This document shows positions 11,147 through 62,652 of a DNA stretch of 64,000 nucleotides, piece after piece (the first letter of the stretch is position 1; each line of letters opens with the position of its first letter). The position numbers were made by a program, and so were the translations under genes. The stretch is from positions 104,585-168,584 of IMG/VR virus record IMGVR_UViG_3300009500_000011. One strand, 5' to 3'. The notes beneath the pieces were generated by a model, which saw only the letters and a list, made by a program, of their open reading frames with translations, did not search any database and was not told the DNA's origin. This stretch comes from a virus. Its lineage: Duplodnaviria > Heunggongvirae > Uroviricota > Caudoviricetes.

Positions 11147-11659
11147 ATGGATTTTTTAGTTGGCGATATATTAGTTTTAAAACAAGATGCTCTTGACCTT
11201 GAAGATAAAACTGGCAAAACAATTTTATATCCCGCAGGTTCCGAAGCTGAAATTATACAAATAAAAAATGAAAATGAATATCATCTGCAATTTCCAGATG
11301 CCAAAATATGGCCTCATGACTTGGCAACTTTATTGATTTTCTTTAATCGTAAAAAAGATGGTAAAAATGTTTATACTCGCCAGGTTTCAGAGTATGGTAC
11401 GCCACCAAAAGAGCTTGCTTTTTATATACCTAGAGAAGTTGATTGGCGTAAAAACTATAGGTATACTGTCAGAATTGAAGCAGAAGATTGTGGCTTTAAA
11501 AAATTGATTTGTCCTAGTTGTTTCAATGACCTGGGAGAAAATGGCGAACCAGATAATGAAGGTTTGCAAAAATGTCAAAAATGTGGTACAATGGTTCTCC
11601 CGATAGACCCATTAACATTCAAGTATCCACATGATGACGGAAATGAACACACAACTTAA
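11147..11659 (+). CDS. hypothetical protein with C-terminal zinc ribbon
   Basis: CPSC...CQKCG pair of CxxC motifs. Confidence 0.45.
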   Translation: MDFLVGDILVLKQDALDLEDKTGKTILYPAGSEAEIIQIKNENEYHLQFPDAKIWPHDLATLLIFFNRKKDGKNVYTRQVSEYGTPPKELAFYIPREVDWRKNYRYTVRIEAEDCGFKKLICPSCFNDLGENGEPDNEGLQKCQKCGTMVLPIDPLTFKYPHDDGNEHTT

Positions 11660-12935
11660 GAGTAATTCTCAAAAATTCTTAGAAGCAGCAAATTGGGCTC
11701 TTGTAAAAGAACGCTTTGGCGAAGATACAGGAGTTAATATTCGTCGCGCTTCTATAGATAATGTGCAAAATATTACGCTTTTCAATGGTTCAAAAGGTTT
11801 ACTTTTTGATGGATATTCGTTTCCTGAACAAGAACATCTTAAAGGCTTGATTGTTCACGAAGTATTAGGAAGCGCACATTCGGTTATAGCGGCATGTTTT
11901 CCTAAATTCTATAACTATGGCGAACCTGCTGAAAAACAAAAGCATCTTGAATACTTAAATGACGATTCTATGAGTGTGTTATTTGCTAAGAAAGAGGATG
12001 GAGTAAATATTCGTCCTTATTTCAATGCTGCAACAAATAGAGTTGAATTTGCTACGCGCGGAACCTTGCTTGTTGTTTCTGATATTGAAGAAACGTCTAA
12101 TCTTGATTATGGCGCAATGGCTCGTTCAATTGCAGAAGAAAAATATCCAATTCTTTTGGATGAGGAATTTGTAAAGAAATACTCTTGTATTTTTGAAATG
12201 ATTCATCCTGATTCCAAAATTCTTACGGATTATGGACAAAGAAAAGACCTTATTCTTCTGTCAGTATTTGATTTAGAAAATAACTGCTATGAATTTTCGC
12301 GTGAATGGGTAGCATCTTGGGCAAATATAATTGGGTTAAATTATGTTGAATATTGGTTTGACCAATATGCGCCTGTTTCTGAATTTTCTTCTTTAGTTGA
12401 AAAACTACTTAAAAAATGGAACGAAACGGATGTAGAAGGTTCTGTTGTTATATTTGTAAACTCTGAAGCAGAACCTGTATATCGTCTTAAAGTTAAAAAT
12501 GCTTATTATTTACAAATGCTTCGACTTGCAAAATTTTGCACTTTGAAGAATTTAGTCTCAATCATGGAAGAAAATAACTTTTCAAATTGGGAACAACTTC
12601 GTGCATATTTGTACGAAAGCCCTTCAATGAATGAAGAATTAGAAATGGCATATAAGGCTCATTTTGATGTATATGAAAATTGGTTAGCAAATCTTGAAAT
12701 CGAAAAACAAAATGTTTTAAAAGAATATCAAGAATTACCTTCTTTCGAATTACAAAAAGATTTTGCTTTATACATCTTAAAAGATGGCGCTTATCCATAC
12801 AATCCGCTATTCTTTGCTATTCGCAAATGGTTAGCAGAAGCCAAAAATCCTAATTTAGAACAATTCTTTGAAGAAAATGTTAAAGCAACAGTAATGTTGA
12901 AGAAAATCTATCCACTATCGGAAGTAGAGGAATAA
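11631..12935 (+). CDS. ATP-dependent RNA ligase (Rnl1-like)
   Basis: Covalent nucleotidyltransferase motifs: motif I KKEDGVN (T4 Rnl1 has KEDG), FEMIHP, motif IV-like VEGSVVIF, motif V-like RLKVKNAYY. Confidence 0.7.
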   Translation: MMTEMNTQLKSNSQKFLEAANWALVKERFGEDTGVNIRRASIDNVQNITLFNGSKGLLFDGYSFPEQEHLKGLIVHEVLGSAHSVIAACFPKFYNYGEPAEKQKHLEYLNDDSMSVLFAKKEDGVNIRPYFNAATNRVEFATRGTLLVVSDIEETSNLDYGAMARSIAEEKYPILLDEEFVKKYSCIFEMIHPDSKILTDYGQRKDLILLSVFDLENNCYEFSREWVASWANIIGLNYVEYWFDQYAPVSEFSSLVEKLLKKWNETDVEGSVVIFVNSEAEPVYRLKVKNAYYLQMLRLAKFCTLKNLVSIMEENNFSNWEQLRAYLYESPSMNEELEMAYKAHFDVYENWLANLEIEKQNVLKEYQELPSFELQKDFALYILKDGAYPYNPLFFAIRKWLAEAKNPNLEQFFEENVKATVMLKKIYPLSEVEE

Positions 12936-12936
12936 C

Positions 12937-13443
12937 ATGGGTTTATTTGATTATGTAATTTGTGATTATCCTTTACCTGATTCATATAAAGGGAGTATTA
13001 AGTTTACAACTAAAGACTTAAATTCTTTTATGAATACTTTTACTATTACTGAATCAGGTCAACTTTTAGAACACAAATTTCATTTTGAAGAAGTTCCTGA
13101 AGAAGAACGTCCTAAATTTAATACACCCGAATGGAATTCTGATAACGAAACAATTAAAACTTGGACACGCTTAATGGGTTCAAAGATTCAAGTATTTGAT
13201 GGCTTGGAACCCTACCTTTACACAGGTGCTGTTTGTTTTTACGGTTCAAATTTAGATAGTTGTAATTCGGATGGATATTATACTACAGAAAATGATGAAC
13301 CTTATGAATACAAAGAATACATTGCTTTGTTTAAAAATGGTATGTTAATTAACATTATTGAAAATAATGAAAAAGACAATGAATTTTTTACTCCAGAATG
13401 TTTTTTAACACAAAAACAGTATAAAGAAAAATATAATGAATGA
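12937..13443 (+). CDS. hypothetical protein
   Basis: Intact ORF between the RNA ligase and the Thg1-like gene. Confidence 0.45.
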   Translation: MGLFDYVICDYPLPDSYKGSIKFTTKDLNSFMNTFTITESGQLLEHKFHFEEVPEEERPKFNTPEWNSDNETIKTWTRLMGSKIQVFDGLEPYLYTGAVCFYGSNLDSCNSDGYYTTENDEPYEYKEYIALFKNGMLINIIENNEKDNEFFTPECFLTQKQYKEKYNE

Positions 13444-14197
13444 CTCGCTTGGCGACCGAATGAAAACATATTATGAAGATGTGACGCGGCATTACTTGCC
13501 TCGGCGAACTCATACAATTATTCGGTTAGATGGAAAATCTTTTCATACGTATACAAAAAAATTAGCAAGACCATTTGATGCTGGTTTGATTGAAGATATG
13601 CAAAAAACCACAATTCGACTTTGTGAGAATATTCAGGGCGTTGTTCTTGGTTATACGCAATCTGATGAAATATCTCTTGTTTTATGTGATTATAAAGAAA
13701 AAGAAACTGAATCCTTTTTTAAAGGTAATATTCAAAAAATTTGTTCAGTATCTGCAAGTATGGCTACTGCATTCTTCAATGCTTTTAGACAAGCCCGTAA
13801 TTTTGAAGGTGGTCCAGCATTTTTTGATGCTAGAGTATTTACTATTCCAGAAAAGGTAGAAGTTCTTAATTATCTTATTTGGAGACAAAAAGATGCAACA
13901 AGAAATTCTATTCAAATGGCCGCACAATCTGTTTATTCTCATAAAGAACTTAATAAAAAGAAGTGGTCTGATTTAAATGAAATGCTTTTTCAGAAAGGTA
14001 TTAATTTTAATGATTATTCTTCTTCTGAAAAACGTGGTTCTTTAATTGTGAAAGAATATTTTGAAGGGGAAGCCTATGATAAGCGTAAGCAAGAAAATGT
14101 TATAGTTACTCGGTCGCGTTGGATTGTAGAACCTGAAACACCTCTTTTTACTGCTGAAGAAAATAGAGATTTATTTGAAAGGTATTTATATAAATAA
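13436..14197 (+). CDS. tRNA-His guanylyltransferase (Thg1)-like protein, 3'-5' nucleotidyltransferase
   Basis: LGDRMK.YE....., IIRLDGKSFHTYTK, GYTQSDEISLVL. These are the hallmark Thg1/TLP motifs. Confidence 0.85.
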   Translation: MNDSLGDRMKTYYEDVTRHYLPRRTHTIIRLDGKSFHTYTKKLARPFDAGLIEDMQKTTIRLCENIQGVVLGYTQSDEISLVLCDYKEKETESFFKGNIQKICSVSASMATAFFNAFRQARNFEGGPAFFDARVFTIPEKVEVLNYLIWRQKDATRNSIQMAAQSVYSHKELNKKKWSDLNEMLFQKGINFNDYSSSEKRGSLIVKEYFEGEAYDKRKQENVIVTRSRWIVEPETPLFTAEENRDLFERYLYK

Positions 14198-14282
14198 ATT
14201 TAGTTATTTTCTGACTTCTTTTCATGTCGAATCGCGTACTCTATTGACATGAAGAAATTTCTCGGAAATTTTCCCTACAAAA

Positions 14283-14321
14283 AAGCCAACCATTTGTAAT
14301 AATAATGGGTGGCTTTTTGTT
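14283..14321 (+). terminator. intrinsic terminator after the Thg1-like gene
   Basis: AGCCAACCAT...ATGGGTGGCT followed by TTTTT. Confidence 0.6.
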
Positions 14322-14349
14322 TGAAAAACACTATTTATGATGGAGAGCA

Positions 14350-15051
14350 ATGTATATGCCAAAAAAACAATCTTCTCAAACACCTAGAAGAATTCCAACC
14401 ATAAGAACGGTACAATTTGAAGCCCAAACAATAAATCAAGAGAAGTTTGTAAAAAATATAGAAAGAAATGTTGTTTCATTCGGAATAGGTATACCAGGTT
14501 CAGGAAAAACGTATTTAGCATTAGCAACTGCTCTTAAAGCATTAGTTGAACAAAAATGTGAACGAGTTGTAATAACTAGACCAATGGTTGAAGCAGGTCC
14601 TTCTATCGGATTCCAACCTGGAAATGAAGAAGAAAAACTTGGAGTATATTTAAAACATATTTATGATATGATATATAAATTACTACCAAAAGTTTTGGCA
14701 GATGATTTGCTTGATTCAGGAAAAATATCAATTGGTGCTATTACATTTATGAGAGGAATGAATTTTGAAAACTCATATGTAATAATAGATGAAGCCGAAA
14801 ACTTAGACAAAAAATCATTTTATTTGTTATTAACAAGAATTTGTGAAGGGTCTAAAATGATTTTTTGTGGTGATACTGGCCAGGTTGATTTAAAAAATCC
14901 TAGTGAAAGCGGATTAAATGATGCAGTTTTAAAATTTCAAGGTAAAGAAAATTTTAGTGTAACTGAATTTACTATTGAAGATTGTCGCAGAAGTAAAGTT
15001 GTTATGGAAGTTATTAAAGCATATTTCCCTAACTCAACCAAGACAAAGTAA
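14350..15051 (+). CDS. phoH: PhoH-like ATPase
   Basis: Walker A GIPGSGKTYLALA, Walker B IIDEAENL, GDTGQVDL motif. Confidence 0.9.
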   Translation: MYMPKKQSSQTPRRIPTIRTVQFEAQTINQEKFVKNIERNVVSFGIGIPGSGKTYLALATALKALVEQKCERVVITRPMVEAGPSIGFQPGNEEEKLGVYLKHIYDMIYKLLPKVLADDLLDSGKISIGAITFMRGMNFENSYVIIDEAENLDKKSFYLLLTRICEGSKMIFCGDTGQVDLKNPSESGLNDAVLKFQGKENFSVTEFTIEDCRRSKVVMEVIKAYFPNSTKTK

Positions 15052-16095: not shown

Positions 16096-16104
16096 TATAG
16101 AGTC

Positions 16105-16287
16105 ATGGAAGAAATAATTCGGGGTCGTTCTAATGAAGTTATTGGACGCCTCATCAAATCAAATGGCGAAACTAGTGTGTACGGTGACCGAGGTCAATAT
16201 CTTGGTTATGCTAACCAAAATGGAACTTTCGATGCTTCTGGGCGTCTTGTAAGCAATTCGGAATCTCCTACCCTACTTCTTCGGTAA
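16105..16287 (+). CDS. hypothetical small protein
   Basis: 60-aa ORF in the tiling. Confidence 0.35.
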   Translation: MEEIIRGRSNEVIGRLIKSNGETSVYGDRGQYLGYANQNGTFDASGRLVSNSESPTLLLR

Positions 16288-16302
16288 TAGTCGATAAAAT
16301 TG

Positions 16303-16331
16303 TTGACAAATCTATTTTAATAGACTATACT
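16303..16331 (+). promoter_or_regulatory. sigma70-type promoter
   Basis: TTGACA-17 nt-TATACT. Confidence 0.6.
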
Positions 16332-16337
16332 TTCAAT

Positions 16338-16467
16338 AGGACCCGTTGTAGGGACACCCGCCTGGGTATGACAGTCACTTGTCGTTTTGCCGGGCTGACC
16401 AAGAAATAGTGAACATTTTGCGGTCGTATTAAATAACCCCAGCGTGACTTATGTTCGCTGGGTTTTT
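16338..16467 (+). ncRNA. candidate ~130-nt sRNA bounded by a consensus promoter and terminator
   Basis: TTGACA-17-TATACT at 16303-16331. No ORF or RBS. Ends in CCCAGCG...CGCTGGG-TTTTT. Identity unknown. Confidence 0.45.
16437..16467 (+). terminator. intrinsic terminator of the candidate sRNA
   Basis: CCCAGCG...CGCTGGG followed by TTTTT. Confidence 0.6.
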
Positions 16468-16509
16468 AATTTGTTGGAAAACACTCTCAAAAATTTTTTT
16501 GAACGAATG

Positions 16510-16538
16510 TTGACAAAACTAAAAAAATGGCATATACT
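16510..16538 (+). promoter_or_regulatory. sigma70-type promoter
   Basis: TTGACA-17 nt-TATACT; fires into the CAT tRNA-like gene and the tRNA array. Confidence 0.6.
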
Positions 16539-16543
16539 ATAAA

Positions 16544-16618
16544 TGCGAGCGGGCGGTTTAGTATCGCGTGAGTCTCATAAGCTCATCAAACTGGCGCAAA
16601 TCCACGGCTACGCAACCA
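16544..16618 (+). tRNA. atypical tRNA-like gene, anticodon CAT, with its own promoter
   Basis: D arm GCGG/TCGC. Anticodon arm TGAGT-CTCATAA-GCTCA. 3' ACCA. However, the acceptor needs a bulged A and the T arm is only TGG-CGCAAAT-CCA. Confidence 0.4.
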
Positions 16619-16652
16619 ATTTTTTAAATATTGAGGGAAGGAGATAATCAAA

Positions 16653-16775
16653 ATGTTGAACATTGCTTGTATTAATGAATGCATCAATTATCAAGGTACG
16701 AACGATAATCAGTTCGATACCCAATTTTTTCCGATTATCTCAGACTTCAATTCCGCAAGGGCTGTACCGGCTTAA
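16653..16775 (+). CDS. candidate 40-aa small protein
   Basis: Not in the ORF track. Strong RBS GGAAGGAGA lies 7 nt upstream of the ATG. A hairpin terminator at 16803-16836 follows. Confidence 0.3.
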   Translation: MLNIACINECINYQGTNDNQFDTQFFPIISDFNSARAVPA

Positions 16776-16802
16776 TAAAACCGAAAAAGCCTAAAAAGAG
16801 TC

Positions 16803-16836
16803 AAGGACTGAGATAGTAAAAATCTCGGTCCTTTTT
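16803..16836 (+). terminator. intrinsic terminator
   Basis: AAGGACTGAGAT...ATCTCGGTCCTT followed by TTT. Confidence 0.6.
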
Positions 16837-16875
16837 GTTTAATAGAACTTTGAAAACTGAATAAGATTTATTTTT

Positions 16876-16950
16876 GGCTCTATAGTGTAGTGGTCTGCAT
16901 AAAAGCTTGTCACGCTTTAGGTCGGGGGTCGGAACCCCGTAGAGTCGCCA
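16876..16950 (+). tRNA. tRNA-Asp(GTC)
   Basis: Acceptor GGCTCTA/TAGAGTC, anticodon loop TTGTCAC. T arm CGGGG-GTCGGAA-CCCCG (non-canonical loop). Encoded CCA. Confidence 0.8.
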
Positions 16951-16951
16951 T

Positions 16952-17027
16952 CCCCTTGTCGCTTAATGGTCTAAAGCAACTTACTGATAATGAGTAGATG
17001 AAAGTTCGATTCTTTCCGAGGGGACCA
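16952..17027 (+). tRNA. tRNA-Ile(GAT)
   Basis: Acceptor CCCCTTG/CGAGGGG, anticodon loop CTGATAA, T arm GAAAG-TTCGATT-CTTTC, CCA. Confidence 0.85.
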
Positions 17028-17049
17028 AAATACATATAATTTGGAATAT

Positions 17050-17126
17050 GGCAACATAGCCAAGGGGATAAAGGCGAAGGTCTGCAAAACCTTCATGCGT
17101 TGGTTCGAATCCAACTGTTGCCTCCA
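17050..17126 (+). tRNA. tRNA-Cys(GCA)
   Basis: Acceptor GGCAACA/TGTTGCC, loop CTGCAAA, T arm GTTGG-TTCGAAT-CCAAC, CCA. Confidence 0.9.
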
Positions 17127-17137
17127 ATTTAATTTAT

Positions 17138-17224
17138 GGAAGTATCGCATAGCGGCGATTGCATCTGACTGTAAATCAGACGCGCGAAAGCGCCTCGGAG
17201 GTTCGAGTCCTTCTACTTCCACCA
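17138..17224 (+). tRNA. tRNA-Tyr(GTA), type II
   Basis: Acceptor GGAAGTA/TACTTCC, loop CTGTAAA. Variable arm GCGC-GAAA-GCGC. T arm GGAGG-TTCGAGT-CCTTC, CCA. Confidence 0.9.
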
Positions 17225-17235
17225 TTTTAATAATA

Positions 17236-17371
17236 TTTTGAGTTGCGCTAGAATAAAGTTACTTCGTCTGTAAAACGAGGAATCCGGGTTCGAGTCCCGG
17301 TCGGAATCTAACGATTTCGGTACTTTAATCGGTAAAATCCTAAACACTTTGTTCGCTACCTTCGCTCAAAA
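17236..17371 (+). ncRNA. Y-RNA-like / YrlA-like element with tRNA-mimic module, embedded in the tRNA array
   Basis: TTTTGAG/CTCAAAA terminal helix. TTGCG...AAAGT pairs with ACTTT-gtt-CGC, followed by TACCTTCG, the same 3' box as element B. TTACTTCGT box. Anticodon-like arm CTTCGT-CTGTAAA-ACGAGG. Perfect T arm CCGGG-TTCGAGT-CCCGG. Confidence 0.55.
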
Positions 17372-17399
17372 TATTTTAAAAACTTGTTGCCCATAGTAT

Positions 17400-17474
17400 G
17401 CCGAACTAGTATAATGGCTATTACATCTGTTTCGTAATCAGAGAATCTCAGTTCAATTCTGGGGTTCGGCCCCA
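17400..17474 (+). tRNA. tRNA-Thr(CGT)
   Basis: Acceptor GCCGAAC/GTTCGGC, loop TTCGTAA with a U-U at the loop-closing pair. T arm CTCAG-TTCAATT-CTGGG, CCA. Confidence 0.7.
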
Positions 17475-17485
17475 AAAAAATTTAT

Positions 17486-17562
17486 TCCTCTATAGCACAA
17501 TTGGTAGTTGCATCTGACTGTTAATCAGAGGGTTCCTGGTTCGACCCCAGGTAGAGGAGCCA
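17486..17562 (+). tRNA. tRNA-Asn(GTT)
   Basis: Acceptor TCCTCTA/TAGAGGA, loop CTGTTAA, T arm CCTGG-TTCGACC-CCAGG, G73, CCA. Confidence 0.9.
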
Positions 17563-17567
17563 ATTAT

Positions 17568-17641
17568 TCCTTCTTCGTTCAATGGTAGGACGTCTGGTTG
17601 TTACCCAGATAATCGCGGTTCAAGTCCGTGAGAAGGAGCCA
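17568..17641 (+). tRNA. tRNA-Asn(GTT), second copy
   Basis: Acceptor TCCTTCT/AGAAGGA, anticodon arm TCTGG-TTGTTAC-CCAGA, T arm CGCGG-TTCAAGT-CCGTG, CCA. Confidence 0.75.
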
Positions 17642-17712
17642 ATTTATTCAGTTCGAAAATTATTATAAATTCAAACTAACTTACATACTATACATTTCAG
17701 AGGTACAAAATA

Positions 17713-49723: not shown

Positions 49724-50029
49724 GTGGTGGTTGCTATGGCAAGAGATACAGTTTACATCACAATTGATATACAATTAGATTCATATGAAATAGCAAACCT
49801 ACTTTTGGCTTTAGACTATGTTCCAAAAACTGGCGAATGGTATGATAAAATTGTAAATAAAATAGCAGATGCTATGGCTCTAAAAGGTGTGAAAATAGAA
49901 GAATTTTATTATAAGCCTAATTCAGGTTTAAATTTAAAATCTGTTCATAGACACCTCGAACTTATGGAACACAAAGAAAAATATCCACATTTAAAAACAA
50001 AAAAAGTTGACAAAACTACTGAAAAGTGA
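49724..50029 (+). CDS. hypothetical protein
   Basis: Intact ORF, GTG start or ATG at 49736. Contains the promoter for tRNA-His in its 3' end. Confidence 0.4.
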   Translation: MVVAMARDTVYITIDIQLDSYEIANLLLALDYVPKTGEWYDKIVNKIADAMALKGVKIEEFYYKPNSGLNLKSVHRHLELMEHKEKYPHLKTKKVDKTTEK

Positions 50030-50035
50030 TAAAAT
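50007..50035 (+). promoter_or_regulatory. sigma70-type promoter for tRNA-His
   Basis: TTGACA-17 nt-TAAAAT, 12 nt upstream of G-1. Confidence 0.55.
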
Positions 50036-50046
50036 GTAAGAATCTT

Positions 50047-50124
50047 GGTGTTTGTAGTGTAGTGGTTTTAGCACGTTAGCCTGTGAAGCTGAAAGGGCCG
50101 TTTCGAATACGGTCAAACACCCCA
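50047..50124 (+). tRNA. tRNA-His(GTG) with genome-encoded G-1
   Basis: G-1 followed by acceptor GTGTTTG/CAAACAC with C73 opposite G-1. Arm TTAGC-CTGTGAA-GCTGA. T arm GCCGT-TTCGAAT-ACGGT, CCA. Promoter at 50007-50035. Confidence 0.85.
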
Positions 50125-57853: not shown

Positions 57854-58106
57854 CCATTATACTTATTCCTATGATTCTCCTCCTTTTTGTTATAAATGTA
57901 AAACATTACATAATAATAATCTAATTTGTGATGTTCTTAAAGAAGAATATCTTAAAAAAAGTTTAGAACCCGAAAGATTTATAAAAGTCCACGAAGAAAA
58001 ACGCTGGATTGATTCGACTAATTTCCGAATAATAGAATATTTCAATCTTTTGCCTAAAAAAATTTATGGAAATTGGGCTAAACCAATATTGTTGACAAAA
58101 CAATAA
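57846..58106 (+). CDS. hypothetical protein
   Basis: ATGAGTGA overlap with the HicA-like gene. Contains the promoter for tRNA-Val in its 3' end. Confidence 0.4.
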   Translation: MSDHYTYSYDSPPFCYKCKTLHNNNLICDVLKEEYLKKSLEPERFIKVHEEKRWIDSTNFRIIEYFNLLPKKIYGNWAKPILLTKQ

Positions 58107-58120
58107 AATTGTGCTATTAT
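58092..58120 (+). promoter_or_regulatory. sigma70-type promoter for tRNA-Val(TAC)
   Basis: TTGACA-17 nt-TATTAT, 10 nt upstream of the tRNA 5' end. Confidence 0.6.
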
Positions 58121-58130
58121 AAAAGTATAT

Positions 58131-58213
58131 CGGCGGGTTCCCGTAGCGGCGAACGGTCTGCTTTTACATGGCAGCATACCACATCGTGGGTTCGAGTCCC
58201 ACCCTGCCGACCA
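58131..58213 (+). tRNA. tRNA-Val(TAC) with 11-nt variable loop
   Basis: Acceptor CGGCGGG/CCTGCCG, arm CTGCT-TTTACAT-GGCAG, variable CATACCACATC, T arm GTGGG-TTCGAGT-CCCAC, CCA. Promoter at 58092-58120. Confidence 0.7.
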
Positions 58214-62361: not shown

Positions 62362-62562
62362 ATGGCAGAAAAAGTTCAAAGTGATTCAACTATGTTTTTT
62401 AATTCGCGAGAAGATTCTGAAAAATTAATTAAAGAAGTTAAACATATTTCGACTACTAAGGTTCAAATTCCATTGCATGATGAATTACAAAAATTGATAT
62501 CCCATTCTGTTGGGATACCTCCTGAAGTAATGAATATTGACAAAACTAAAGAAAAAGAGTAG
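62362..62562 (+). CDS. hypothetical protein
   Basis: Intact ORF in the tiling. Confidence 0.4.
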   Translation: MAEKVQSDSTMFFNSREDSEKLIKEVKHISTTKVQIPLHDELQKLISHSVGIPPEVMNIDKTKEKE

Positions 62563-62577
62563 TATATAAATAAATAT

Positions 62578-62652
62578 GGGGTTATCATATAGTGGCTATT
62601 ATGACGGTTTTGCAAATCGTTCACCTCAGTTCGACTCTGAGTAGCTCCACCA
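62578..62652 (+). tRNA. tRNA-Ala(TGC), second copy
   Basis: Acceptor GGGGTTA/TAGCTCC with G3-U70. Arm ACGGT-TTTGCAA-ATCGT, T arm CTCAG-TTCGACT-CTGAG, A73, CCA. Confidence 0.85.

Follow-up and report, generated by a model that had tools for sequence, protein, structure and literature searches.

A probable ribosome-mediated attenuator ahead of a phage tRNA array

The erm, cat and ARE-ABCF leaders are attenuators of antibiotic-resistance genes that act through stalling on an upstream open reading frame (uORF). Further accounts of such resistance-gene attenuators can be found in PMC6851288 and PMC5418344. Leader-peptide attenuators also precede amino-acid biosynthesis operons, the trpL, hisL, pheL, thrL, leuL and ilvL leaders being of this kind (PMC1183508, PMC3082878). 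T-boxes, which control aminoacyl-tRNA synthetase and amino-acid genes, bind uncharged tRNA directly. Phage tRNA arrays are now regarded as tools for outlasting the loss of host tRNAs and the defence systems that cleave them (PMC10264068, PMC11464382, PMC11555353), and such use as countermeasures to tRNA-targeting defence would provide a rationale for demand-driven control. How the expression of these arrays is controlled is largely unknown so far. Our full-text survey of the literature, whose coverage was incomplete, turned up no description of an attenuator or leader-peptide element controlling phage tRNA genes. This article concerns a candidate for such an element: a short leader open reading frame (ORF), or micro-ORF, and the intrinsic terminator behind it, which stand ahead of a tRNA array in a 64,000-nt stretch of DNA from an uncultured, large phage of the Caudoviricetes with a G+C content of ~32% (positions 104,585 to 168,584 of IMG/VR record IMGVR_UViG_3300009500_000011). 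We call this whole stretch the window. It contains 32 tRNA calls, all on the + strand.

The micro-ORF and its terminator, to judge from the comparisons below, probably form a conserved ribosome-mediated transcription attenuator that gates the tRNA array. An earlier note on this DNA had already placed a control region ahead of the array, a good intuition, though it did not recognize the leader-ORF attenuator mechanism. The parts of the module are these.

16510–16538, + strand: promoter P2 (TTGACA, 17 nt, TATACT; 11/12 matches), which starts the leader transcript.
16634–16645, + strand: Shine-Dalgarno (SD) sequence GAGGGAAGGAGA, proposed as region 1 of the attenuator.
16653–16778, + strand: leader ORF, 40 codons followed by TAA TAA, in which codons 2 to ~24 are the proposed sensor stretch.
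16695–16721, + strand: hairpin H1, codons 15–23, inside the ORF, a candidate pause or synchronizing hairpin.
16737–16747, + strand: AT segment ATCTCAGACTT, codons 29–32, region 2, whose partner is either the SD or the 5' arm of the terminator.
16803–16843, + strand: intrinsic terminator, made up of a 5' arm (16803–16814, region 3), a 3' arm (16822–16833, region 4) and a T tract (16834–16843).
16848–16863, + strand: conserved box CTTTGAAAACTGAATA, 11–12 nt before tRNA-Asp.
16876–20026, + strand: first tRNA cluster (Asp, Ile, Cys, Tyr, a Tyr-like call, Thr(CGT), two Asn, Glu, Gln(CTG), two Gln(TTG), Phe, an odd tRNA and Gly(GCC)).

Three of the things one looks for in an attenuator are seen here: a leader ORF with its own SD, an intrinsic terminator before the tRNAs and an antiterminator that uses a segment a ribosome could cover. 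Most of what we have to say about it comes from relatives. Searching public assemblies with the 330-aa protein that adjoins the module as the query yielded a set of related contigs. L001 belongs to the same phage as the window, and L002 and L003 are 96% identical to the window in this protein; in L004, L136, L005–L008, L009/L010 and L011/L012 the identity is 40 to 50%. Our comparison of the module (alignment A1) covers the seven related lineages of uncultured phages that could be recovered. Elsewhere the harvest was thin. The window DNA had no match among GenBank phages, and the 330-aa protein had no relative in GenBank phages, IMG/VR or GTDB genomes. IMG/VR was also scanned for further relatives, a 16-mer scan giving chance matches only; scans of GTDB genomes gave none, and a pattern scan of JGI metagenomes returned the L011 contig again and nothing else. 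The contigs with remoter homologues of the 330-aa protein end before the module. Within the 64-kb window, no second copy of the attenuator was found, and it is single-copy per phage.

All seven lineages have the same order: promoter, SD, ORF, terminator, box and then tRNA-Asp, the first tRNA of the array. That this architecture stays constant while the flanking 330-aa protein is only 40 to 50% identical counts in favour of an attenuator. The promoter is in each case a perfect TTGACA, a 17-nt spacer and a -10 hexamer, lying 43 to 119 nt upstream of the micro-ORF. In the window, sites with at least 11/12 matches number 13, 12 of them on the + strand, where a first-order Markov model of both strands expects 5.3 +/- 1.9, and this over-representation argues that the promoter class is real in the phage. 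tRNA-Asp starts 43 nt past the terminator. No sigma-70-like site (at least 9/12) lies on the + strand between P2 and 17227, so at least five tRNA calls at the head of the array (the clear tRNAs for Asp, Ile, Cys and Tyr, plus a 67-nt Tyr-like call) should need read-through of the terminator, unless the box is an unrecognized promoter.

The ORF shows signs of being read. The sequence GGAAGGAGA occurs once in the window and, in a test of 55 ORFs, paired more strongly with the anti-SD than any other, and the SD is kept in all seven lineages as GAGG(G/A)AAGGAG(A/G). The frame is likewise open in all seven, at 36 to 43 codons, its ATG kept and its indels all multiples of three; the tandem stop TAATAA (16773–16778) is found in the window phage only. 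Between the window and L002, the module changes fastest in the micro-ORF (87.8% identity) and in the stretch separating its stop from the terminator (70%); P2 and the SD-containing leader are 100% identical and the terminator 97.4%. The retention of start codon, SD and frame by lineages that differ at ~40% of positions suggests that the ORF is translated.

The heart of the matter is the RNA. H1 is paired in 100% of cells across the seven lineages, with double changes at 3 pairs, and one of its compensatory changes (G-C to C-G in L009 and L011) costs the peptide an F-to-L replacement. The terminator, a 12-bp stem with a T tract, came top of an 18-kb terminator scan; it is 96% paired across lineages, with double changes at 7 pairs, and a U tract follows it in 7/7. 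Jointly, H1 and the terminator are 97.9% paired with 10 double-change pairs, a result that none of 500 shuffles reaches and for which slid controls give 29 to 49%. The antiterminator, in which the AT segment pairs with the terminator 5' arm, is 85% paired as against 17 to 47% when slid. Its compensatory changes fall at position pairs 123/204, 124/203, 128/199 and 133/194, and 0/500 shuffles attain its covariation score. Positions 124/203/218 and 128/199/222 change together, that is, AT segment, 5' arm and 3' arm in step, the telltale sign of one strand serving two helices that exclude each other. In every lineage the homologous AT segment is a better partner for the terminator 5' arm than any other window of the ORF or spacer.

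Folding calculations agree. The antiterminator domain has a free energy of -20 to -34 kcal/mol and so equals or surpasses the stability of the terminator, at -17 to -25 kcal/mol. Folded from the ATG (without the SD) to the end of the 5' arm, the antiterminator is the minimum free energy (MFE) structure in 7/7. With the SD included, the SD pairs with the AT segment in 7/7 once that segment exists, and the MFE structure of the full-length leader in all seven combines this pairing with the terminator. The SD:AT segment helix is 94% paired over the lineages, and an unguided RNAalifold run found it along with H1 and the terminator. The geometry is equally steady. The AT segment is preceded by 27 to 30 codons, the stop lies 22 to 36 nt before the terminator and inside the antiterminator domain, and in 5/7 lineages the distance from the end of the AT segment to the stop is 25 nt. 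The conserved architecture, the helices with their covariation, the mutually exclusive folds and the weak constraint on the peptide (below) are all directly supported.

How might such a leader work? We infer that the switch depends on translation, in which direction it regulates and what signal it reads. P2 would start the leader transcript, and the attenuator would decide whether polymerase enters the tRNA array. The regions are taken as the SD (1), codons 29–32 (2), the terminator 5' arm (3) and the terminator 3' arm (4). With no ribosomes, 1:2 and 3:4 should form and transcription would terminate. A ribosome that travels unimpeded to the stop would cover or pull apart region 2 and the stop-side domain, 3:4 would form, and polymerase would stop at ~16835–16843. 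If ribosomes load and the leading one is slow within codons 2 to ~24, region 1 would be occupied and region 2 left free; region 2 would then pair with region 3, as the antiterminator, giving read-through to tRNA-Asp, Ile, Cys, Tyr and beyond. H1 may pause polymerase and so keep it in step with the ribosome. What is sensed would be decoding speed on the leader, most likely reflecting the supply of usable tRNAs for codons that the downstream tRNAs read, and tRNA output would thus be self-adjusting.

This leads to a more tentative thought, which we hold to be possible and no better than that: the leader ORF may be a tRNA-supply meter, its first ~25 codons sampling the codons of the phage's own downstream tRNAs, so that scarcity slows ribosomes and the antiterminator switches on the array. 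The scarcity could come from host shut-off or from an anticodon-nuclease defence, and genes for an RNA ligase and a Thg1-like repair enzyme lie just upstream. In the window, 22 of the 24 codons from 3 to 26 are read by the first tRNA cluster (16876–20026), against a background of 43% in phage genes (binomial 7e-7; 0/12,921 24-codon windows of phage genes equal it). These 24 codons use all 11 tRNA species of the cluster (Asp, Ile, Cys, Tyr, Thr-CGT, Asn, Glu, Gln-CTG, Gln-TTG, Phe and Gly-GCC), as do 0.28% of windows, and the enrichment stops at the point from which a stalled ribosome would start to overlie region 2. If true, this would be the first attenuator known for tRNA genes and a demand-driven counter-defence circuit. 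The phage would be gauging decoding capacity and adjusting its own tRNA output with a compact element of ~200 nt, and leader-peptide attenuation would reach a new class of genes.

Several points weigh against the attenuator, or against parts of it. Over the whole ORF the codon match is weaker (p = 7e-4, binomial; 4e-3, empirical). The match was noticed post hoc, the boundaries of codons 3–26 being set afterwards, and in L005, L009 and L011, whose arrays are cut by contig ends, it is not significant (p 0.15 to 0.48). With a post hoc pattern and relatives that fall short of significance, we treat decoding speed as the supported signal and a meter for the very tRNAs being controlled as an attractive but unproven refinement. 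The SD:AT segment pairing shows little covariation (a single double change, its score reached by 15/500 shuffles) and could be a by-product of the resemblance of region 3 to an SD. The box before tRNA-Asp could be an unrecognized promoter that frees the tRNAs from read-through. The basis is seven DNA sequences from ~5 independent clades, all of them metagenome contigs.

Of the other explanations the one that survives best, though we consider it unlikely, is that the micro-ORF encodes a functional small protein and is followed by an ordinary terminator, the tRNA array being transcribed independently, for example from the box, if a phage-specific or modified polymerase uses it as its promoter. 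The conservation of ORF, SD and terminator would suit a gene of this sort, as would the C-terminal NSARAxPA common to the closer lineages. This C terminus is not kept in L005, L009 or L011, however, and neither Pfam nor PHROG holds a family for the peptide. A profile of it run against 5.8 billion proteins retrieved only three ORFs, already gene-called at these same loci. Outside the helices, variability at codon positions 1 to 3 is 0.44, 0.36 and 0.45, with no three-base periodicity, and every invariant residue (T16, N17, D22 and S30) falls in H1 or the AT segment. By these measures the peptide is under little constraint where it does not overlap the RNA helices, which is the profile of a regulatory leader ORF. 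A small protein would also leave unexplained the covariation of codons 29–32 with the terminator 5' arm and the compensation in H1 at an amino-acid cost. The C-terminal ARAxPA resembles the SecM and RAPP motifs; an arrest peptide was rejected, the motif being absent from L005, L009 and L011.

The other half of that explanation, independent transcription, turns on the box. It is strongly conserved and keeps a constant spacing to tRNA-Asp, and many other tRNAs of the phage have promoters of their own. The 14-nt core, TTGAAAACTGAATA, is identical in 6/7 lineages and better conserved than the terminator; the two bases before it vary, and L009 differs inside the core too. The box may serve tRNA precursors, either as a processing signal or as a promoter of non-sigma-70 type. 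As a general promoter it does not recur in the 64 kb: it is single-copy in the window, and the idea of a repeated phage promoter was dropped, each locus having one copy save L009, where a second (9885–9898) sits 8 nt before tRNA-Tyr.

It is very unlikely, in our judgment, that the fold is picked without ribosomes, by a ligand, a protein or a tRNA-binding leader with T-box-like function, the ORF being incidental or serving to tune the fold. A bistable fold with a conserved H1 is also typical of riboswitch expression platforms, and tRNA-related enzymes (Rnl1, Thg1-like) are encoded nearby, with a CCA-adding enzyme in a distant relative. Yet an untranslated switch needs neither the ATG nor the exceptional SD, the indels in threes or the fixed distance between stop and helix, all of which are kept. 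Rfam gave no match over 16100–17000 at E <= 10, T-box included, and the RNAalifold consensus shows no conserved internal loop or bulge that would hint at a pocket for a ligand or a tRNA end.

The earlier note had divided the region into three units, and three further features come in here.

16303–16331, + strand: promoter P1 (TTGACA, 17 nt, TATACT; 11/12 matches), which drives unit 1.
16338–16470, + strand: unit 1, an ORF-less structured RNA of ~130 nt with an intrinsic terminator at its end.
16544–16618, + strand: tRNA-like relic, anticodon CAT at 16576–16578, at the 5' end of the P2 transcript.

Much of the description stands. Both TTGACA-17-TATACT promoters are where they were placed, each with 11/12 matches; the 40-codon ORF does have an exceptional SD, the strongest among 55 ORFs, and its own terminator; the ~130-nt unit behind P1 does lack a credible ORF and ends in a stem and T5. 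The division itself does not stand. Three autonomous units (a trans-acting small RNA, a functional special CAT tRNA and an independent micro-gene) seem to us most improbable. In their favour, unit 1 folds well and lies between a promoter and a terminator of its own, P2 starts at the 5' end of the tRNA-like element just as in the promoter-plus-tRNA cassettes of the window, and that element has an intact anticodon arm and 3' ACCA, identical to those of a real tRNA-Met in L011. Against them, there is no terminator between the element and the micro-ORF, so the two share a transcript, and 5/7 lineages have no such element in the leader. The micro-ORF is likewise not a unit by itself: with its terminator it forms a conserved, covarying, bistable element before the first tRNA in every relative. 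A transfer-messenger RNA, which the tag-like ORF end and TAATAA brought to mind, can be dismissed, the tmRNA mode of ARAGORN and Rfam both being negative, the ORF having its own SD and ATG, and no T arm or CCA following it.

The tRNA-like element deserves a closer look. As the earlier note described, it has a CAT anticodon, a D arm, an anticodon arm, a bulged acceptor and a 3-bp T stem. In full, there is a CUCAUAA anticodon loop on a 5-bp stem, a 4-bp D stem and a 3' end reading CGCA-ACCA; the acceptor stem carries a mismatch or bulge, and the T stem has 3 bp where 5 are expected. The D loop (TTTAGTA) lacks G18-G19 and the T loop (CGCAAAT) lacks T54-Psi55. ARAGORN makes no call even at relaxed thresholds (-ps80). 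The Rfam tRNA model (RF00005, threshold 29 bits) reports nothing at E <= 10, whether 901 nt or only 96 nt are searched, so the tRNA-like fold has no covariance-model support, an outcome the earlier note had named as telling against it. The fold energy is ordinary (z = -0.55). An nhmmer search links the element to a genuine tRNA-Met(CAT), that of L011 (E = 3.7e-6), and in their alignment (A2) the anticodon arms are identical and both sequences end in CGCAACCA. A defective or specialized initiator or Ile2 tRNA, which had been proposed, fits poorly with the missing ARAGORN call, the missing loop residues and the tRNA-Met homologue. The element is clearly of tRNA descent, and we read it as a decayed homologue of the relatives' tRNA-Met(CAT), now the 5' end of a leader transcript. 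It lies between promoter and SD in the lineage of the window and L002 only, the other five having short, tRNA-free leaders. Near-consensus sigma-70 sites run straight into single tRNAs in cassettes at 50007–50048, 58092–58131 and 62537–62578 (His, Val and Ala), and P2 and the relic have the same geometry, so the relic may have arrived as a cassette. It may keep a residual role as a 5' stabilizer, a processing site or a decoy. Like other tRNA pseudogenes and relics it is homologous to a true tRNA, here tRNA-Met(CAT), and has kept its anticodon arm and ACCA; unlike them it sits in the 5' untranslated region of a regulatory leader, directly at the promoter, and in its anticodon arm it has not diverged at all from the functional tRNA of a distant relative. 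In practical terms, 16544–16618 should not be annotated as a tRNA.

Unit 1 is another matter. Its terminator is a 7-bp, G+C-rich stem (16437–16444 with 16456–16462) followed by T5 (T tract 16463–16467), which a simple terminator scan missed because the loop is 11 nt. There is no credible ORF in 16338–16470. The RNA folds into four hairpins (z = -3.2 against shuffles; -5.6 for the L002 copy) and has a G+C content of 45 to 50% in surroundings of ~30%. It is present in the window, L001, L002 and L003 only; the remaining relatives have in its place a homologous gene for a 319–373-aa protein or, in L136, a gene for a 115-aa helix-turn-helix (HTH) protein. In the L002 copy of P1 the -35 is TTGAAA. 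Window and L002 are 96.3% identical over unit 1, whereas third codon positions in the adjacent gene for the 330-aa protein agree at 87.6%; as the 60-aa gene is conserved to a like degree, the figure is weak evidence of constraint. The few differences are in loops and the terminator. Rfam 15 gave no family (the top was MicC, 18.5 bits against a threshold of 90, E = 1), and no homologue appeared in IMG/VR or GTDB. We rejected a role as antisense regulator of the downstream module, the complementarity being at chance level and the best duplex no better than shuffles. We also rejected the idea that unit 1 or the tRNA-like element is a remnant of the relatives' 319–373-aa gene, for which tblastn found nothing. 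Unit 1 is plausibly a separate, lineage-specific small RNA of the orphan kind, or else an upstream leader that acts in cis and leads into P2. T4 species 1 and 2 (rnaC and rnaD) are small stable RNAs from a phage tRNA region. Unit 1 is like them a structured, ORF-less RNA (~130 nt) adjoining a phage tRNA cluster, and differs in having its own promoter and terminator and in being confined to one lineage; the likeness is by description only.

The neighbourhood has its own interest. Upstream of the module are genes for an Rnl1-type RNA ligase, a Thg1-like tRNA 5'-end enzyme, PhoH, the uncharacterized 330-aa protein and a 60-aa ORF. The first three named form an RNA/tRNA repair cluster (11631–15051) 5' of the array, which is found also in L002, L004, L005, L009, L011 and L138. 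The relatives' clusters additionally include Ku, and that of L138, a distant relative, a CCA-adding enzyme. PhoH of L002 has 584 aa and a faint match to a Hint domain (PF05203, Hom_end_hint), suggesting an intein. The 115-aa protein of L136 (2197–2544) has a faint Sigma70_r4/HTH match and is encoded directly 5' of the leader ORF; a TTGACA-17-CATAAT promoter is embedded in its coding sequence, and the protein may be a dedicated regulator of the module.

The arrays themselves contain oddities. HNH endonuclease genes are scattered through them (17713–18174 in the window, for example), and in the sister phage L002 an IS605-type TnpB (OrfB_IS605, Cas12f1-like_TNB; 8342–9556) has been inserted within the tRNA array. 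At 17242–17308 ARAGORN calls a 67-nt 'tRNA-Tyr' with its anticodon at position 29. Rfam reports no tRNA there. L002 preserves the sequence to 98.5%, and one possibility is a tRNA-like gene, truncated or armless, that adjoins the normal tRNA-Tyr. A tRNA at 18948–19021, kept in the sister phage (L002 9896–9969), has an 8-nt anticodon loop, an ARAGORN anticodon of 'atcg' and an Rfam score of 35.2 bits, and could be a four-base-decoding or otherwise unusual tRNA.

We return to the known systems. With T-box riboswitches the proposed attenuator shares a function, the choice of terminator or antiterminator in a leader that reports on tRNA status; it has no match to the T-box model, no specifier loop and no T-box bulge, and it has an ORF and an SD. 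With the erm, cat and ARE-ABCF leaders it shares the slowed ribosome on a short ORF that would refold the RNA and turn on the gene downstream. Those leaders sense a drug-bound ribosome by means of a nascent-peptide motif, whereas the phage leader has no arrest motif common to all lineages (RAxPA occurs in the closer ones only) and its output is tRNA. The trp-type attenuators come closest. There, too, a short ORF driven by an SD is followed by an intrinsic terminator, region 2 is in or near the ORF and the peptide is weakly constrained; their scheme, in which 1:2 and 3:4 compete with 2:3 and the position of the ribosome picks the fold, is the one we propose for the phage leader. The phage element departs from them in having as its proposed region 1 the SD itself rather than a coding segment, in placing an extra conserved hairpin, H1, within the ORF, and in having no run of a single codon, the window phage having instead mixed codons that match ~11 downstream tRNA species. 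Above all, what it would control is tRNA genes, not biosynthetic enzymes.

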